NCBI RefSeq assembly: GCF_000008465.1
Contig: NC_006512.1
Coordinates: forward strand, 2,730,001 to 2,762,000
Direction of reading: 5' to 3'
Length of the DNA: 32,000 nt
DNA from: Idiomarina loihiensis L2TR
GTDB lineage: Bacteria; Pseudomonadota; Gammaproteobacteria; Enterobacterales; Alteromonadaceae
Part shown: piece after piece, positions 12,737 through 24,330 of the stretch
Layout of the letters: each line of letters begins with the position of its first letter
Position numbering within the stretch: the stretch's first letter is position 1
Made by a program: the position numbers and the translations under genes
The notes under the pieces: model-generated
Databases searched by the model: none
The model's input: the letters and a program-made list of their open reading frames with translations, nothing else
What the model was told of the DNA's origin: nothing

Positions 12737-13472
12737 AGCGGTTTTACTGCTGCGTCCGGGCAAGAGTCCGGACGACTTTACCCAACAGCTGCGCAAAACT
12801 GGCAGAGAATGCTTTGTTCACAGTTTTATTGAGATAGAGCCTTTACCTGTGAATAAAGAGCAGCTGACCCAGATTAAACAAAAGCATTGGGACGGCATTG
12901 TTATTGTCAGTAAAAATGCAGCTCATTATGCCTCCCGGGCTGGTTTTAGCGGGGTTCCTTCTAAATATTATGCAGTCGGTCCGGGAACCGCTTCTTTTGC
13001 GTGCAAACATTTAAACACTGCCGTGAGCTGTCCGGCCTTCATACATCAGTCGGAAGGGTTGCTGGAGTTGTCTGAATTACAAAAACTGCAGCAACAGAAC
13101 TGGTTGATCATTCGCGGAGAAGGCGGTCGTGAATTATTGGCGGATGCCATACGAGCTCGCGGAGCTTCTGTCGATTACTGGGAAGTGTATCGCCGAAAAC
13201 AACTCACATTGAACGACCCTGAACTGATTCAGCAGTGGATAAGCTCAGTTGGTACTATTGTTGTTACCAGCGCTGAACAACTGGGATACTTTTTGTCGTC
13301 TATGCCAAACTCTGCCCAAAGCTGGCTGGATAGCTGTCAGTGGATAGTTCCAAGTCATCGCCTGAAAGGTTTGATTCCTTTCGGACAATCAGACAATATC
13401 AAAGTGACAGGCAGTGCAGCGGACGCCATATTAATGAATGCGCTAATAGCGGATGGAAAAACTCATGACTGA
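12711..13472 (+). CDS. hemD: Uroporphyrinogen-III synthase
   Basis: 253 aa, immediately after hemC with a 26-nt overlap. Size and position fit HemD, but the start codon is uncertain (GTG 12717 is also possible). Confidence 0.8.
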
Positions 13473-14592
13473 AGAGAATAAAATTGAGAACGAAGAAGTT
13501 CAGAATAATGAACAAAGTAGCGAGAAGAGCACAGAAGAAGAAACCATAACCGCCGAGAAAAGTAGCGGGCGTTTCTTCAAACGCTTAGTCTGGCTTATTG
13601 TTTTAATCGCTATTGTCGCCGCCGCATACTGGGGCTATACGCGTTTCCCTGGTTTATTTAAGACAGACTCTGAACAGGTTAGTGAGCAACCGCAGGAAGA
13701 TCCGATTGAAACGCGCTTTAAACAACTGGAGCGCTCTGTTGGAAACCTGGAGCAGCAACTACAAAACACTGTTCAGGCTCGCGAGCTGGATAAGCTGAGT
13801 AACACCGATCAGCAGCTAGAGCGCGAGTTAACCAGTTTGCGTCAGAGCCTCGAAGATCTTCGTGACGACATGCGCAAAACGCCTGCCGAAAAAGCGGCTT
13901 ACTGGCGTCTACTGGAAATAAAACAAACCTTATCGGCGGCTGCACGAATGATGTGGAGCCAGGACGACTACAAAGCGGCGCTGCAACTTTTGAAATTAGC
14001 CGACCAACAGTTGGCGGGTATCGACAGTCGTAACGCAATTCGTACCCGCGAGAAGCTAGCGGGCGATATTGAGCGAGTGAATGCCGCAGTTAAAGCAGAC
14101 AATACTGACCTGGCAATGCAACTCGTGGGTCTGCAACAACGCGTGTCAGACCTGCCCGACGAAGTAAACAGTAATCAACAGCGCTTAAGTTCTGACACCC
14201 AGAATGTCAGTGGTGATGTTAATGACTGGCAAACGAACCTGAGTGCTAACTGGCAGTCCTTCCTTGATAACTTTATCCGCATTCAACCCGTAGACAGCGA
14301 TCCTAAACCTCTGCTGAGTGCGACCCAGCGCACAGCAATAAACGAACGCATTCAACTACTCTTTACTCTGGCTCAACAGGCGGCTGTAAAGAATAATGAT
14401 GAATTGTGGCAGAGCTACCTGGACCAATTATCTAAGCTAATTGCGCAGGTAAAAGGCGATGGTGCAGCTTCACAGGATATTATTTCGCGTATTCAGTCAC
14501 TAGGCCAGGAAGACTTTGAACAGCAGAGTATAGAGCAGCTTGAATCGCTGGACTTCATCGCTCAGGCTATTGAGCAGGGAGATGCCTCATGA
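13453..14592 (+). CDS. hemX: HemX-like membrane protein (uroporphyrinogen-III C-methyltransferase-annotated family)
   Basis: 379 aa with an acidic N-terminus, one TM helix (LVWLIVLIAIVAAAYWGY) and a long coiled-coil, in the hemCDXY order. The alternative start ATG 13465 overlaps the hemD stop. Confidence 0.75.
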   Translation: MEKLMTEENKIENEEVQNNEQSSEKSTEEETITAEKSSGRFFKRLVWLIVLIAIVAAAYWGYTRFPGLFKTDSEQVSEQPQEDPIETRFKQLERSVGNLEQQLQNTVQARELDKLSNTDQQLERELTSLRQSLEDLRDDMRKTPAEKAAYWRLLEIKQTLSAAARMMWSQDDYKAALQLLKLADQQLAGIDSRNAIRTREKLAGDIERVNAAVKADNTDLAMQLVGLQQRVSDLPDEVNSNQQRLSSDTQNVSGDVNDWQTNLSANWQSFLDNFIRIQPVDSDPKPLLSATQRTAINERIQLLFTLAQQAAVKNNDELWQSYLDQLSKLIAQVKGDGAASQDIISRIQSLGQEDFEQQSIEQLESLDFIAQAIEQGDAS

Positions 14593-15752
14593 AATGGATC
14601 ATAGCTCTGGTTGTCATCATTATATTGGGGGCCATTATTGGACCACTCGCGTCGGGTAACGCGGGCTATGTTTTAGTTCAGTTTGCCGGAGTAGCGATTG
14701 AGACAACCGTAGTCGGCCTGTTTGTCGTTACTATTGTGGCAATTGCCGTACTCAGTGTTGTGGTGTCGTTACTGCGCCGGCTGCTTAGCAAAACCCGCCA
14801 GGGTCGGAAGTGGTTGGCAAATCGAAGCGAACGTAAAGCTCAGAACATTTTTCAGCAGGGCATACGCGAGCTGCTCGATGACAATCCCGAAAAAGCAACT
14901 GAGAGCCTGTCTAAGGCTTACAAAAAATCTCCTGATAACAACATTGCCGCGTTAACTGCAATTGCCGCCTGCCTCAATAAAGACGCCGGAAAGGCAACTT
15001 ACTGGCACGATGAAGCAGGGGCATTTTATGATAATGCAGATACACTGCTTCAGCTTGTTTCTATTGAACAGTCAGTAAAAAAAGACCCGACAGAAGCGGA
15101 TAAAGAGATGCGAAGCTTATTAGAAGCTAAGCCACACTCTGCCAATGTACTTAAGTTAGCTTATCGGGTCTTTAAAGCGTCGGGAAACTGGCAGCAACTG
15201 AAAGAGCTATTACCTGAGTTGCGCCGTGTAACCGACCTTGCTCCAGCCGAATTTGACCGTCTTGAATATCAAGTCTATTTTGAACGCTTTGTTGCTGAGG
15301 GTCGCAAAAGTAACGAGATGCTGTACAACGAATGGCGCAGCCTTCCCAGTAAACAACGCAGCGACGCAACCATCAGGTTGAGTTATGCCGCCGCGTTAAA
15401 ACATTTAGGTGATTACGAAGTCTCTGCCAGAGTGGTTTTAAAAGGATTAAAAAGAGGGGAGTTGCAACCAGCTGCCGTTAACTCTTTGCATTTATTTAAT
15501 GCGAAATCGGAGAAGTTGCTGGAGTTTGTTCAAGCTCAGTTGAAACAAGATCCGGAAAATAGAGATTACCTCTATGCTCTTGCACAAATCGCTATGGATA
15601 ATCAGGATTTCTCGTTAGCGCAACGTGCTTTGAAAAAGTTAGCAGAAATTGAACCCAGCAGTCACGTCTACCGCTTATTGGGCAATGCTTATCATGCTCT
15701 TGGTGATAGTCAGCTAGCTGCTAACGCCTATAAAGAGGCGTTAGCTCACTAG
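14589..15752 (+). CDS. hemY: HemY-like TPR membrane protein
   Basis: 387 aa with two N-terminal TM helices and then TPR-like repeats. Its ATG overlaps the hemX TGA (ATGA). Confidence 0.8.
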   Translation: MKWIIALVVIIILGAIIGPLASGNAGYVLVQFAGVAIETTVVGLFVVTIVAIAVLSVVVSLLRRLLSKTRQGRKWLANRSERKAQNIFQQGIRELLDDNPEKATESLSKAYKKSPDNNIAALTAIAACLNKDAGKATYWHDEAGAFYDNADTLLQLVSIEQSVKKDPTEADKEMRSLLEAKPHSANVLKLAYRVFKASGNWQQLKELLPELRRVTDLAPAEFDRLEYQVYFERFVAEGRKSNEMLYNEWRSLPSKQRSDATIRLSYAAALKHLGDYEVSARVVLKGLKRGELQPAAVNSLHLFNAKSEKLLEFVQAQLKQDPENRDYLYALAQIAMDNQDFSLAQRALKKLAEIEPSSHVYRLLGNAYHALGDSQLAANAYKEALAH

Positions 15753-15771
15753 TTAAACGTTGGCGCTGTAA

Positions 15772-16353
15772 TTATTGACGTATACCTTCAATTGACAGCG
15801 TCAGCTCAACTTCTTTAGCCGTTGGGCCTAAGTTATAGTCAATTCCGTAATCGGCCAAGGTTAGGTCTACTTCACCTTCGAAGCCACGACGGAATCCGCC
15901 CCATGGATCTTTACCTGCACCAACATGCTCAACTTCGATAGCTATCTCTTTGGTTACACCATTAAGGGTGAATTCACCATACATAGTGCCTTCACCTTTA
16001 TCGTCATCGTCCGGAACATACTTAGTACTTTTGAACGTTGCAGTAGGGTGCTCAGAAACACTCAAGAAGTCATCGCCACGTAAGTGTTTGTCACGCTCAG
16101 CGTGGTTAGTATCAACGCTGGAGGTATCGATTGTGACGTTAACAGAGGCATTCTCCGGTGCATTCTCGTCATAGCTAAAGGAGCCTTCGAAGTCGTTAAA
16201 ACGGCCGTATAACCAACTGTAGCCTAAGTGACTAATTTTAAACTCAATAAAGGCGTGTTGACCTTCAGTATCAATTTTATAGTCTTCAGCTATAGCTGCC
16301 GACGTAAATAACGCACTACCCGCTACAGCGGCTGCAACTAATGTCTTTTTCAT
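15772..16353 (-). CDS. yceI: YceI-family periplasmic polyisoprenoid-binding protein
   Basis: 193 aa with a signal peptide and YceI motifs ([36 protein letters not shown]). Confidence 0.85.
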
Positions 16354-16904
16354 TATGATTTCCTCTTAGTTTTTCCAAACATTCGAATAAGTGTGCTGTC
16401 TCTATTAATAAAATGATGTTTCAGCGCTGCTAACCCATGCCCACCAGCCAGGATCACTAAAGACAACGCTGAATACCAATGTATGTCACCAGCAATATCT
16501 TCTTGCTTTGGTAAATCGGTTATTACTGCTGGTACCGAGAACCAGTCAAATACGCTGATAGAACTACCATCTGCTGTTGAAATCAAAAAACCGCTAATCA
16601 TTACTGTGAATAGCAGTAAATAAAGTAAAAAGTGGCCTGCTTTTGCTCCTAACCGCTCGAACTTGCTACCTAAAGGTTTAGGCTTAGTATTGGTTAAAGT
16701 CCAGAACACTCGTAAAACCGTTACAATAAGTAAGGTAATGCCAAACGATTTATGCCACCAGGGGCCAAGACGATACCACTCGTCGTAGTAGGTCAGAGTT
16801 AGCATCCACCAGCCTAAAGCAAATAAACCAAATATTATTAAGGCCGACAGCCAGTGAATTAATACTGCTGTCAAACCGTATTTATCTGATGTGTTTTTCC
16901 ACAT
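16353..16904 (-). CDS. Cytochrome b561 family protein
   Basis: 183 aa, 4 TM helices with conserved His residues (IHWLSAL ... GHFLLY ... HGLAALKHH). Its stop overlaps the yceI start by 1 nt, which is the usual cybB-yceI pairing. Confidence 0.85.
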
Positions 16905-16999
16905 AAAGTTTTCCTGATTTGTCTAAGTTTTATGTTAGTTCATATTTATAGAATGAAAATACGTATTATTAGTAGATTAACATCTAATTAATAGAATGT

Positions 17000-17026
17000 A
17001 GTAGCCTGATGCTTTTGCATCAGGTG
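17000..17026. repeat. REP-like hairpin, copy A (AGTAGCCTGATG-cttttg-CATCAGGTG)
   Basis: 8-bp stem cctgatgc/gcatcagg with a tttt loop. Both arms are identical to copies B and C, but the orientation is inverted. Confidence 0.7.
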
Positions 17027-17147
17027 GGGTGATTGTGGTGGACGCTCGGGATAGAGTAATCGAAAGGCCGGTTGGTGAGCTGGGTACCGGGGTAAATGCG
17101 CTGCGGCTTCAGCTTTAAAAGGAGTAAAGGAGTAAAGCCTCAGAGAG

Positions 17148-17162
17148 CTCACCTGACGTGAA
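17148..17162. repeat. REP-like hairpin, copy C, left half (ctcacctgacgtgaa), split by the IS
   Basis: 14/15 identical to 18947..18961 of the intact copy B. Confidence 0.75.
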
Positions 17163-17170
17163 TGTCATAT

Positions 17171-17183
17171 ATGGTCCCCTCCC
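17171..17183. repeat. Subterminal inverted repeat of the IS (atggtcccctccc), at the transposase 3' end
   Basis: Perfect reverse complement of 18530..18542. It is set 8 nt in from the deduced element end. Confidence 0.85.
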
Positions 17184-17429
17184 GTTTTGCAACGGCAACT
17201 CGTGGTAAATGTCGGGGCGCTCGCATATATACGGCCTGTTTATGGTGCGCGCTTTGCGCACCTGGCCTGGATGAACTCCGCACGACAACTGGCTTATCAG
17301 GCTAACGTACTTTATGTACGGACGTTCAACAGTCTCAGTTGTCGTCGGTTTACCCTATTTTACCATCCTGTTGACGTTTGCAACTCCCGGAAGGAATGAA
17401 CCTTCGCTGTGCTCTTTTACTGAATGCTG
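17171..17429 (-). ncRNA. Candidate IS110/IS1111 bridge (seek) guide RNA region
   Basis: This is 259 nt of noncoding DNA 3' of the transposase. A 9-bp stem (17283..17291 with 17336..17344) encloses a 44-nt loop containing a hairpin (17306..17320). The loop also holds a 9-nt string (17296..17304, atcaggcta) identical to the flank at 18546..18554. Segment 17201..17236 resembles an expanded copy of the junction at 17157..17177. Transcript ends and strand are not determined. Confidence 0.35.
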
Positions 17430-18461
17430 TTAAGCAGCAGTCATCCGGTAATCTTCTTTATTCTTTAACATCGCCCAGATTATCCGGGCGTGCTTGTTAG
17501 CCAGTGCCACCGCTGCAACGTTGTTGCCTCTGCGTTTAGCGACATCCTGTGCCCAGAGGCTCAGCCTGTCGTGGCGCTGTTGTGCCACCCGCAGTGCCGA
17601 GCGGGCGCCATGCACCAGCAGTGTCCTGAGTTTGGTGTTCCCTTTTTTGGTAATACCGCCTAAACGGTCTTTACCGCCACTGCTGTTTTGCCGTGGTACC
17701 AGTCCCAGGTATTCCGACAGGTTGCGGCCGCGTTTAAATTCACTCACATCACCTATCAGTGCCAGCAGCGAGGTCGCTGTTATCGGTCCGATACCCGGCA
17801 GGGTCATCAGCCGCTGACTGTCTTCATTCCTTTCGGCCTGTGTCGCTAAGTGCTTATCCAGCGCTTTAACTTCTTCATCCACCGCTCGCAGCATCTGATA
17901 GAGCCGGTTGATGAGGTCCCGTGACTGAAGCGTCAGCGCATTGCTGTCGTCTTCCAGTACCTCCGGTACTCTCTGTAATATCGTACCGACTCGCTTCGGT
18001 AAAAGAATGCCGTATTCGGCCAGTTGCCCCCGCAACCTATTCGAGAACTGCGTTCTCGTCTGCACGAAGCCTTCCCGCTGATTGACCATCAATGCTAAGT
18101 CCTGCTGCTCAATGCTTTTCAGCCTGACCGTCTGACGGTTGGGTCGTGATGCCGCCTCGGCTATTGCCCGGGCGTCATTCGCATCGTTCTTCTCACCCTG
18201 CAGGTACGCTTTGACGAAACGCGGTGGCAACGCCACCGTTTTATAACCCAGCTTTTCACATTCGCGGCGCCAGTAATGACTCATGCCGCAGGACTCAACC
18301 GCTACTTCACAGTCATCCGTACGGCTCAGCGTCGCCAGCTTCGCTAACACTTTATTGCTGCGCAGTTTTTTATTAAAAACTTCCTGCTCATTTTCATCCA
18401 GCGCCAAAACCTGAATAAAATCCTTTGCCAAATCCAGGGCAATTCTGTTTACAATAGCCAT
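17430..18461 (-). CDS. IS110-family DEDD transposase/recombinase
   Basis: The track ORF starts at 18542, inside the inverted repeat. ATG 18461 (MAIVNRIALDLAKDF...) follows a GGAGAGG Shine-Dalgarno sequence and gives the typical IS110 N-terminus. The C-terminal motif is PGIGPITATSLLALIGD...YLGLVPRQNSSGGK. Confidence 0.9.
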   Translation of the reverse strand: MAIVNRIALDLAKDFIQVLALDENEQEVFNKKLRSNKVLAKLATLSRTDDCEVAVESCGMSHYWRRECEKLGYKTVALPPRFVKAYLQGEKNDANDARAIAEAASRPNRQTVRLKSIEQQDLALMVNQREGFVQTRTQFSNRLRGQLAEYGILLPKRVGTILQRVPEVLEDDSNALTLQSRDLINRLYQMLRAVDEEVKALDKHLATQAERNEDSQRLMTLPGIGPITATSLLALIGDVSEFKRGRNLSEYLGLVPRQNSSGGKDRLGGITKKGNTKLRTLLVHGARSALRVAQQRHDRLSLWAQDVAKRRGNNVAAVALANKHARIIWAMLKNKEDYRMTAA

Positions 18462-18529
18462 TGGTCCTCTCCACTCTGTTCTATAGAAGCTTGAACCTCT
18501 ATATTGGCACATTGCGATGCCGCTTAGGA

Positions 18530-18542
18530 GGGAGGGGACCAT
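18530..18542. repeat. Subterminal inverted repeat of the IS (gggaggggaccat), at the transposase 5' end
   Basis: Perfect reverse complement of 17171..17183. It is set 2 nt in from the deduced element end. Confidence 0.85.
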
Positions 18543-18544
18543 CT

Positions 18545-18555
18545 CATCAGGCTAC
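18545..18555. repeat. REP-like hairpin, copy C, right half (catcaggctac)
   Basis: 11/11 identical to 18962..18972 of the intact copy B. Confidence 0.75.
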
Positions 18556-18566
18556 CCAGCAGACAT

Positions 18567-18594
18567 AAAAAAACCCCAGCCGGTTTGGCTGGGG
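18567..18594 (-). terminator. Rho-independent terminator (distal, second)
   Basis: On the minus strand: ccccagcc-aaacc-ggctgggg (8-bp GC-rich stem) followed by TTTTTTT. Confidence 0.8.
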
Positions 18595-18606
18595 TTATTT
18601 ATTTGT

Positions 18607-18715
18607 AGTCTGGACAAGGTTTCGAAGAGCTCAACCTGTTCAGCGGGGTAAAGCCAAATGGTTGGCTTTACCAGGGACCCGCTTCACCCTACTCTCGTCG
18701 TAGGTCACCACCAGA
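18607..18715 (-). other. 5S-flank-like structured module (degenerate second 5S gene or unknown small RNA)
   Basis: Its 5' end (tctggtgg) and 3' end (ccagactac) plus the following 14 nt and terminator mimic the ends of the real 5S. The interior is unrelated to 5S. It contains a perfect 10-bp hairpin (18647..18672) extended by a 5-bp outer stem. Confidence 0.3.
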
Positions 18716-18718
18716 AAT

Positions 18719-18747
18719 AAAAAAACCCCGGCGCGTTAGCACCGGGG
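18719..18747 (-). terminator. Rho-independent terminator of the rrn operon (proximal)
   Basis: On the minus strand: ccccgg-tgctaacgcg-ccgggg followed by TTTTTTT, 13 nt after the 5S 3' end. Confidence 0.8.
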
Positions 18748-18759
18748 TCTTCCTATTTG

Positions 18760-18879
18760 TAGTCTGGCGGTGACCTACTCTCGCATGGGGAGACCCCACA
18801 CTACCATCGGCGCTGGTGTGTTTCACTTCTGAGTTCGGAATGGATTCAGGTGGTGCCACACCGCTATGGCCGCCAGACA
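18760..18879 (-). rRNA. rrf: 5S ribosomal RNA
   Basis: The reverse complement reads tgtctggcggccatagcggtgtggcaccacctgaatccattccgaactcagaagtgaaac...ccccatgcgagagtaggtcaccgccagacta. It is 120 nt and collinear with E. coli 5S. Confidence 0.92.
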
Positions 18880-18946: not shown

Positions 18947-18973
18947 CTCACCTGATGTGAACATCAGGCTACT
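18947..18973. repeat. REP-like hairpin, copy B (intact), in the 23S-5S spacer
   Basis: ctcacctgatg-tgaa-catcaggctact, with a 7-bp stem and 4-nt loop. It serves as an empty-site reference for the IS insertion. Confidence 0.75.
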
Positions 18974-19027: not shown

Positions 19028-21918
<2,891 letters not shown>

Positions 21919-22671: not shown

Positions 22672-24214
<1,543 letters not shown>

Positions 24215-24330
24215 AAAAGTAGTTCAATCAACTCAATGAATTACGCGTTTTTGCTTGGCTTCTTTCGAAACCTTGCTGAACACTCATTCAAAAGTTGCAA
24301 TACAAATATTTCGTTTTGCTTAACTTCTGC

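Follow-up and report, generated by a model that had tools for sequence, protein, structure and literature searches.

An intact IS1111-group insertion sequence within a REP of Idiomarina loihiensis: revised ends, target site and a predicted guide RNA

The locus analyzed here lies in a window of 32,000 nucleotides from the Idiomarina loihiensis L2TR chromosome and consists of an insertion sequence lodged in a REP-like hairpin, with a similar, uninterrupted hairpin about 400 bp away. It raises the question of where exactly the element starts and ends, and how it finds its target. A sequence-only reading had joined the flanks 17148..17162 (ctcacctgacgtgaa) and 18545..18555 (catcaggctac), noted that they match the hairpin at 18947..18972 (ctcacctgatgtgaacatcaggctac) at 25 of 26 positions, and concluded that the element spans exactly 17163..18544 and entered at the boundary between loop and stem. 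Direct reading confirms these stretches and the 25/26 match; the ends, in contrast, are off by 5 bp, with the length of 1382 bp unchanged. The features of the element and its surroundings are as follows.

17168..18549, minus strand: the 1382-bp insertion sequence as delimited by the revised ends (empty site in contig L067, 12-copy flank table)
17430..18461, minus strand: transposase gene, 343 aa plus stop (translation, Pfam, NCBIfam)
18543..18549, minus strand: left terminal extension TGATGAG, 7 bp (flank table, relatives, empty site)
18530..18542: subterminal inverted repeat of the left (transposase-proximal) end, 13 bp (direct reading, kept in relatives)
17171..17183: subterminal inverted repeat of the right (distal) end, 13 bp (perfect complement of 18530..18542)
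17168..17170, minus strand: right terminal extension ATA, 3 bp (flank table, relatives, empty site)
17148..17167, plus strand: larger part of the target REP, comprising the 5' arm, the tgaa loop and tgtca, the first 5 nt of the 3' arm (covariation, empty site)
18550..18555, plus strand: remainder of the target REP, ggctac, made up of the last part of the 3' arm and the tail (invariant flank in 11 of 12 copies)
18947..18972, plus strand: uninterrupted REP located in the 23S-5S spacer, with the TG/CA type of stem
17001..17024, plus strand: REP gtagcctgatgcttttgcatcagg in the opposite orientation, upstream of the occupied REP

The element is an intact copy of an IS1111-group (IS110 family) insertion sequence, one of 12 in the Idiomarina chromosome of 2.84 Mb. 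The 12 copies are at least 99.6% identical and all retain an intact ORF; the element is probably active. The family assignment made in the sequence-only reading is borne out by matches of the transposase to PF01548 (E = 9.5e-20) and PF02371 (E = 2e-26) and to the NCBIfam model 'IS110 family RNA-guided transposase' (NF033542; 326.8 bits, cut-off 140, spanning residues 7-336 of 343). In an alignment with IS621 (chain 8wt6_A), the DEDD residues D10, E56, D93 and D96 fall on the motifs IDTAK, IEATG and KTDTVDA, and the GL-P----SG motif G253..G262 (G253-L254-x-P256-xxxx-S261-G262) falls on TPRRYESG. At 343 aa, the protein has a length typical of the IS1111 subgroup (330-350 aa). In 400 genomes of the order, the closest transposase from outside the genus matches it at 46%. 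The transposase set in the supplement of PMC11187229 has no Idiomarina entry under the names looked up, and a distant DNA search of a plasmid collection returned just short pieces of unrelated IS110-family genes.

Read on the transposase strand, the element has the organization TGATGAG-sTIR ... sTIR-ATA, and TGA (18547..18549), the first three bases of the left extension, is common to element and target. The non-coding region is 262 nt long downstream of the transposase gene (17168..17429) versus 88 nt upstream (18462..18549), in agreement with the longer downstream non-coding region of the IS1111 subgroup (PMC11187229). The inverted repeats of this subgroup are usually 11-13 bp, perfect or near-perfect, and subterminal, as is the 13-bp pair here, with extensions beyond the repeats of 7 (or 6) bp on the transposase-proximal side and of 3 bp on the distal side (PMC11187229). 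The perfect 13-bp repeats had been recognized from the sequence alone, with offsets of 8 and 2 nt; the offsets are instead 3 and 7 nt, and only the revised ends follow the family rule.

The ends were assigned from an empty site and from the flanks of all copies. A metagenome pattern search yielded contig L067, collinear with the left flank of the window, which carries the empty site ctcacctgacgtgaaCGTCAggctac (orthologous empty-site reading tgaaCGTCAggctac). The five disputed bases are CGTCA in L067, whereas ends at 17163..18544 require CATCA, and the hairpin that those ends predict is not restored in this contig. A paralogous occupied site reads tgaaCGTCA directly before the element, and excision of this copy in silico at the revised ends reproduces the L067 empty site exactly. 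Position 17163 is T in the window copy and C in both the empty site and the paralog, so that the window copy, excised at the revised ends, agrees with the empty site in 25 of 26 positions. The occupied site equals the L067 empty site plus 1382 bp with zero added bases, and the absence of target duplication, claimed previously, is thereby upheld.

In 10 of the 11 element copies that lie in REPs, the five nucleotides following the loop are complementary to the left arm, and the same pairing with the other hairpin arm is found in 8 flanks from related species; given this pairing across the 12 copies and the relatives' flanks, 17163..17167 is target DNA. In the flank table these bases do not travel with the element, contrary to the termini first claimed; this, like the failure of the empty site to restore the predicted hairpin, is an outcome that the sequence-only reading had itself named as refuting it. 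The right flank ggctac is invariant in 11 of 12 copies. Eight of the 12 copies are identical across the full 1382 bp between the revised ends, versus just three end to end with 17163..18544, because 'base 1' then changes with the flank. The copies of related species have the same termini as the revised ends, and the orientation relative to GTAGCC...TGA is identical in all 12 copies and in all complete flanks of relatives. The crossover stretch is tca at 17165..17167 on the plus strand, that is, after YGTCA, five bases into the 3' stem arm, rather than at the loop-stem boundary.

An element spanning exactly 17163..18544, with entry between loop and 3' arm and with 18947..18972 as its uninterrupted target, would explain the 25/26 match of the joined flanks and would suit G006, the closest of the genomes searched, in which the 3' arm of a diverged site starts with 'cat'. 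At that site, despite 96% identity of the flanking gene, the intergenic region has diverged beyond alignment, so that there is no clean orthology, and its imperfect palindrome cctgacgttcacatccggggctac decides between neither model of the ends. The earlier ends would also leave the hairpin arms mismatched (CA/CA or CG/CA), a state seldom seen in intact REPs, and give extensions of 2 and 8 bp. Together with the CGTCA of the empty site, which refutes them, and the dependence of 17163..17167 on flank and left arm, this makes the 17163..18544 solution extremely improbable. The 18947 hairpin is not a copy of the target used: its stem is cctgaTG/CAtcagg, the left arm of the occupied hairpin is cctgaCG, and the TG/CA class is occupied at 0 of 8 sites in this genome. 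Its resemblance to the joined flanks is due to membership in the same REP family and to the left-end bases of the element (TGATGAG on the transposase strand), which mimic the target arm. With such mimicry and a palindromic target, a shifted solution looks equally good, and the locus illustrates clearly, against an actual empty site, that the ends of an IS110/IS1111 element are not readable from a similar nearby palindrome. At two other insertion sites (L003 and L010), the REP is absent altogether in 5 related genomes.

The target is a REP, a short imperfect palindrome with a conserved head and many extragenic copies. At least 73 intact REPs of this genome carry the CTAC tail; they are mostly intergenic, and their arms are almost always complementary. 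They comprise several types of loop and three stem variants, each complementary; one copy lies in the 23S-5S spacer of three of the four rrn operons. The targeting of REP-like hairpins suggested for this element holds for 11 of 12 genomic copies, all in one orientation. The remaining copy is inserted at a non-hairpin site inside a GGDEF-EAL gene, where the bases that match the guides described below are kept. Two of the copies are located downstream of rrn operons and possibly derive from a single insertion spread via recombination between rrn regions, in which case the independent events may number 11.

The non-coding region downstream of the transposase gene contains the following predicted elements.

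17278..17348, minus strand: predicted target-binding module, in which a central hairpin (17306..17320) and an internal loop are enclosed by an outer stem formed by 17331..17348 and 17278..17294
17321..17328, minus strand: 5' target guide UGAACGUC, identical to the target bottom strand, with its end on the proposed core
17297..17304, minus strand: 3' target guide UAGCCUGA, identical to the target top strand gTAGCCTGA
17224..17275, minus strand: candidate donor-binding module, with UUCAUC (17270..17275), AUAUAUG (17224..17230) and a GGCC-closed hairpin core (17244..17262)
17187..17192, minus strand: predicted -35 box TTGCAA of a promoter formed only in the circular element (simple hexamer scan of the in-silico junction)

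The predicted fold of the target-binding module has z = -3.9, and the consensus fold of 6 Idiomarina variants includes one compensatory pair, AU to GC. Both 8-nt guides lie on opposite sides of a single internal loop, 24 nt apart around the hairpin. The 5' guide, being identical to the target bottom strand, would pair with the top strand. Together the guides cover the REP sequence GTAGCCTGACGTTCA, overlapping by 2 bp on the dinucleotide GA, and both 8-mers occurred jointly in 0 of 5000 shuffles. Their order in the RNA, UGAACGUC followed by UAGCCUGA, agrees with IS1111 seekRNAs, in which the complement of the top strand lies 5' of the complement of the bottom strand and the two overlap (PMC11187229). 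In the second module, UUCAUC and AUAUAUG flank the hairpin and resemble, in short matches, the two sides of the joined ends; its scaffold is conserved in elements with ~41-45% transposase identity, with just one covarying position, and this segment may be the donor-binding module. No Rfam family matched the non-coding region at gathering thresholds, the matches in the window being rRNA and tRNA genes only.

By analogy with characterized relatives, the element would form a circular intermediate. Its junction on the transposase strand is predicted to be GGGGACCATATA joined to TGATGAGATGGTCCCC (...CCATATA/TGATGAG...), with the inverted repeats 10 bp apart; on the plus strand this is ...ccatctcatca/tatatgg..., in place of the junction tgaca/ag expected from the earlier ends. 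A predicted -10 box TATGAT, 17 nt after the -35 box, spans the joined ends (17169 and 17168, then 18549..18546), and the same simple hexamer scan found no equivalent promoter in the integrated copy.

The match between guide and target extends to relatives. Among Idiomarina species the 5' guide takes the forms TTGAACGTC, TTAAACGTC, GTGAATGTC, GATAGCGTC and GATAGCCTC, each tracking the loop and arm of its own element's target, and the 3' guide and the GTAGCC/TGA flank are invariant. The guide layout is reproduced in 3 elements of other families with ~41-45% transposase identity, whose guides match their own flanks; this comparison drew on elements from four other genomes, in which exact ends are ambiguous without empty sites and in one of which (G318) the copies lie within a larger shared repeat. 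Within the L2TR genome, occupancy falls with mismatches to the 5' guide, from 3/7 sites with none to 7/33 with one, 1/36 with two and 0/131 with at least three (207 TCAGGCTA sites of the genome; Fisher p = 2.5e-7, confounded with REP membership). A C-A mismatch to the 5' guide is present in 5-6 of the 12 targets and the wobble-compatible TGAACA class is unused, so complementarity alone predicts use incompletely.

The best explanation, to which we assign a probability of about 0.9, is an IS1111-group element whose 262-nt non-coding region encodes a guide RNA (seekRNA/bridge RNA) for the REP target. In an RNA-transposase complex, the two guides would recognize the target by pairing, a second loop would pair with the joined ends, and strands would be exchanged at the bases common to target and element. 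The circular element would consequently enter in a single orientation, at the GTAGCC/TGA boundary or inside TGA, and leave the target unduplicated.

The location of 11 of 12 copies in hairpins would also be expected if the REP were recognized by its hairpin structure or by direct protein-DNA contacts, as by IS200/IS605 TnpA or REP-associated tyrosine transposases, with the guide matches incidental, for example REP remnants; a palindromic target also eases chance matches to either strand. Against such recognition, one copy occupies a non-hairpin site in which only the bases matched by the guides are retained, the 5' guide shifts among species together with the loop and arm of the respective targets, and occupancy tracks guide mismatches. 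The guides also lie in unpaired strands of a conserved internal loop whose stem has a compensatory change, and for other members of the family the RNA has been shown experimentally to be both necessary and programmable (PMC11187229, PMC11208160), all of which renders this explanation very unlikely. The same element and mechanism with an exchanged core other than GA (TC on the plus strand), either left of TGA or on TG, is possible, though less likely. From sequence, the exchange could lie anywhere in the three shared bases, and in two relatives the 5' guide is one base longer (GUCA), giving a 3-bp overlap; the guides of the window element, however, overlap by exactly 2 bp, GA, and in the IS621 model every guide covers the 2-nt core (PMC11208160). 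The exact phosphodiester bonds exchanged would likewise be assigned by analogy.

For the guide-RNA reading, a close parallel is ISPa11 (IS1111 family) of Pseudomonas aeruginosa, which shares the short 5' end, the subterminal repeats and the long non-coding region after the gene, inserts in one orientation into the host REP beside a GTAG-type head (target GTAGG*GCG...), and has a seekRNA with the same guide order (PMC11187229). Its host REP and guide sequences differ from those of the Idiomarina element. ISEc11 and ISXne4 likewise have 7-bp left and 3-bp right extensions and no target duplication, and in ISEc11 a promoter is formed at the circle junction, as predicted here (PMC11187229); the ISEc11 target, however, is a short non-REP sequence, GTGAAAATACTG. 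IS621 of the IS110 group (Durrant et al. 2024, PMC11208160; 8wt6-8wt9) has the DEDD plus Ser recombinase to which the Idiomarina transposase was aligned, a bridge RNA with two loops and all guides over a shared core dinucleotide, and REP targets in E. coli. Unlike the Idiomarina element, IS621 encodes its RNA upstream of the gene, at the left end, and has subterminal repeats of just 2-3 bp and the reverse guide order (PMC11208160); its core is CT, and that of the Idiomarina element is probably GA. ISPpu9 and ISPpu10 of Pseudomonas putida are IS110-family elements in several copies, each within a host REP (PMC12288879); hosts, REPs and subgroup details differ.

REPs as general IS targets were reported by Tobes and Pareja (2006, as cited in PMC11208160), and REP-targeting IS1111-type elements with guide RNA were described in 2024 (Siddiquee et al., PMC11187229). 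The present element is thus an ordinary IS1111-type element that adds little to general biology, guide-RNA targeting of REPs being already known. It supplies correct ends, target, guide coordinates and natural guide variants for the annotation of Idiomarina and for collections of seekRNA-target pairs.

In the case of ISEc11 and ISXne4, a relative was naturally re-directed via changes in the guide segments only (PMC11187229). The re-direction in Idiomarina is finer, in that the 5' guide alone drifts, along the variants of one REP family. We give roughly even odds to the proposal that, in one Idiomarina IS1111-type lineage, several successive changes were confined to the 5' guide of the seekRNA, each following a loop or stem variant of the REP, with the 3' guide, donor ends and scaffold fixed, and that tolerance of mismatches is position-specific. 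In the one genome considered, occupancy hints at such tolerance, in that sites with a mismatch to guide position 2 or to position 5 are often used, and the core-adjacent change (TGAACA class) never is. If both hold, the lineage would document, on a small natural scale, how guides drift and at which positions a change matters.

The insertion sequence lies directly downstream of a minus-strand rrn operon and contains, between its flanks, a single long minus-strand ORF that encodes 343 aa from the ATG at 18461. The relevant features are:

17171..17183 and 18530..18542, perfect 13-bp inverted repeat, as previously claimed and here read directly
18762..18877, minus strand, 5S gene of the rrn operon
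19028..21918, minus strand, 23S gene of the rrn operon
22672..24215, minus strand, 16S gene of the rrn operon

The ORF product contains the Pfam domains PF01548 and PF02371, scores 326.8 bits against a cut-off of 140 with the NCBIfam model NF033542 ('IS110 family RNA-guided transposase'), and, when aligned to the solved IS621 transposase, shows catalytic positions D10, E56, D93 and D96 along with an S261-G262 motif, all in agreement with the IS110/IS1111-type assignment of the sequence-only reading. The window occupies 2730001-2762000 of a single 2,839,318-bp contig. The genome carries 12 copies of the element, each with at least 99.6% identity, and close relatives were found in named Idiomarina species. 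Among 400 genomes of the order, the nearest transposase from outside the genus is only 46% identical. Thus, this IS1111-type element targeting REPs (short palindromic repeats) is of a kind already known, but is itself a distinct member of the IS1111 subgroup. It shows all the features of the subgroup that could be tested, and its working can be likened to that of ISPa11 and ISEc11 and, more distantly, IS621.

The flanks ctcacctgacgtgaa (17148..17162) and catcaggctac (18545..18555), once joined, match the hairpin ctcacctgatgtgaacatcaggctac (18947..18972) at 25 of 26 positions; hence the earlier placement of the ends at 17163..18544, with insertion at the loop-stem boundary of a REP-like hairpin. 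The observation was partly confirmed, and the interpretation is partly supported: the element family and the target class hold, whereas the ends are off by 5 bp, at 17168..18549, and the insertion point and the supposed intact target are wrong. In window orientation, the left flank is cctgacRtgaa in 11 of the 12 copies. To the right, all 12 copies have catcagg, and the next four bases are ctac except in one copy, where they are ttac. At the position previously taken as the element's first base, the copies have either T or C, which in 10 of 11 cases is the pairing partner of R in the left arm. In the REP family as a whole, 73 intact copies carrying the CTAC tail were counted, with three stem variants (CA/TG, CG/CG and TG/CA) that are complementary in nearly all copies. 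The original ends imply mismatched hairpins as targets, whereas moving them by 5 bp turns each target into a perfect hairpin, cctgacR-loop-YGTCAGGCTAC. With the revised ends, 8 of the 12 copies are identical across the full 1382 bp, compared to 3 of 12 with the original ones, and the terminal extensions become 7 bp and 3 bp instead of 2 and 8 bp, which fits the rule for the IS1111 family (Siddiquee et al., PMC11187229). Two sequence-only readings of other copies in the same genome placed the flanks as GTAGCCTGA | C(R)TTCA..., consistent with the revised ends.

Relatives in I. abyssalis, I. zobellii and I. piscisalsi, with 89-92% DNA identity, agree with these ends. Read on the transposase strand, they have GTAGCC as the left flank, TGATGAG-ATGGTCCCC at their start, GGGGACCAT-ATA at their end, and to the right a full hairpin, in which the first five bases pair with the last five in all variants (tgacg...cgtca, tgatg...catca and tgaca...tgtca).

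Metagenome contigs were searched for both flanks separated by five unspecified bases, the length predicted by both end models, and a single match (contig L067) was obtained. This contig is collinear with 13000..17036 of the window at 93.7% identity and enters a 5S gene on the other side, and therefore comes from the orthologous locus in a close relative. Its empty site, ctcacctgacgtgaaCGTCAggctaccc, contains CGTCA, which gives a perfect hairpin, and not CATCA; like the copy flanks and the relatives, it contradicts the original ends, and it is an observation that the sequence-only reading itself had named as refuting them. Over the compared stretch, L067 does not differ from the product of revised in silico excision at genome position 2430981, where the paralogous copy lies. 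Compared to the excision product of the window copy, it shows one difference within the 26-nt target (17163, T in the window and C in L067) and a few more deeper in the right flank. At the position of 17163, C is present in both the empty site and the occupied paralogous site; the T of the window copy, which results in a G-T mismatch within the stem of the REP, is probably a post-insertion transition or a REP polymorphism.

In a third rrn operon of the same genome, the paralogous REP is unoccupied, and its 3' arm also starts with cgtca. This REP, located outside the window some 80-110 nt before 2023644 of the same contig, reads cctgacgttaacgtcaCAggctac and contains two extra bases precisely at the insertion point of the element elsewhere; it could be a REP variant escaping targeting or the footprint of an imprecise loss.

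The trinucleotide TCA is common to the target and both junctions (17165..17167 and 18547..18549), which places the crossover inside this trinucleotide, five bases deep in the 3' arm. There is no true target duplication, in agreement with the sequence-only reading. In the I. piscisalsi copy (locus L016, 2800..2817), the first flank base after the element (ata, then Cgatgctattgcatcagg) is C where hairpin symmetry predicts T; as the three shared bases begin here, the C might stem from resolution of a heteroduplex at the crossover, or from a mutation that came later.

The hairpin at 18947..18972, previously considered an intact target, is a different, TG/CA stem variant, a class occupied at 0 of 8 sites in this genome. 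It matches the joined flanks because the left extension of the element (TGATGAG; ctcatca on the plus strand) supplies 'cat' before 'cagg', reproducing the arm of the TG/CA variant. This REP resides in the 23S-5S spacer, and is therefore included in the rRNA precursor transcript; it is found in three of the four rrn operons and is missing in the fourth. Between the distal terminator hairpin (18571..18596) and the 5S gene, the window contains about 150 extra bases (18590..18745) that are bounded by repeated tatttgtagtctgg, include a second terminator-like hairpin (18717..18745), match no Rfam family at threshold, and are lacking in the paralogous operon at genome position 2432380.

The 262 nt following the stop codon fold more stably than shuffled sequences (z = -3.8), and 17278..17348 forms a long stem around an internal loop with a small central hairpin (z = -3.9). 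The predicted guides are:

17321..17328, loop strand, predicted 5' guide UGAACGUC, identical to the target bottom strand
17297..17304, loop strand, predicted 3' guide UAGCCUGA, identical to the target top strand

The two 8-mers occurred together in none of 5000 shuffles. The duplex positions that they match have 2 bp in common, GA on the transposase strand, which lies within the shared TGA and corresponds to the bridge RNA model's core dinucleotide, and the guide complementary to the top strand stands before the other guide in the non-coding region, the order reported for IS1111 seekRNAs. The target would be found by a guide RNA, two loop segments of which pair with the target strands. In a comparison of six Idiomarina variants, the 5' guide is where the sequence differences cluster; one compensatory change, AU to GC, is seen in the outer stem, and both guides remain in unpaired strands. 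The 5' guide of each element tracks its own target:

TTAAACGTC, target with a ttta loop
GTGAATGTC, target tgaca...tgtca
GATAGCGTC, targets with ...ttatt... loops
GATAGCCTC, target with a ctattg loop

Across these variants, the 3' guide is constant, as is the GTAGCC flank. In three distant families, the guides are laid out in the same way and match each family's own flanks, but without empty sites their exact ends are ambiguous, the same trap that affected the sequence-only reading. In another genome (G318, loci L068-L072), the transposase is only 44% identical, yet the same extensions, TGATGAG ... ATA, lie beside different inverted repeats; four of the five copies are embedded in a larger repeat that they share, several hundred bases long.

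Among the 207 genome sites containing TCAGGCTA, occupancy was 3/7, 7/33, 1/36 and 0/131 for 0, 1, 2 and at least 3 mismatches to the 5' guide, respectively (Fisher p = 2.5e-7; partly confounded with REP membership). Genome-wide, tgaa-loop REPs are a minority of the family but account for 8 of 11 REP insertions, whereas the commonest class (taaa loop and TG arm, 27 sites) has one insertion. The single copy outside any hairpin (L005, 1919450-1920831 of the same contig) occupies the site ctaagaaCGTCAGGTTAC, to which each guide has one mismatch; this argues for sequence over hairpin recognition. This copy interrupts a 760-aa GGDEF-EAL reading frame; in silico excision restores the open frame, with the GGDEF and EAL domains (cyclic-di-GMP signalling) in its C-terminal part.

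A second module (17224..17275), in which UUCAUC and AUAUAUG flank a GGCC-closed hairpin and resemble both sides of the joined ends, is a likely candidate for the donor loop that, judging from sequence, would pair with the joined ends. Elements with transposases about 41-45% identical share its scaffold, but covariation with their ends is seen at only one position. In the predicted circular form of the element, the joined ends would make a promoter, with predicted expression of the RNA. Joining the ends in silico yields TTGCAA-17 nt-TATGAT across the junction, and no comparable promoter was detected in the integrated copy; the predicted junction promoter fits that described for ISEc11 (PMC11187229).
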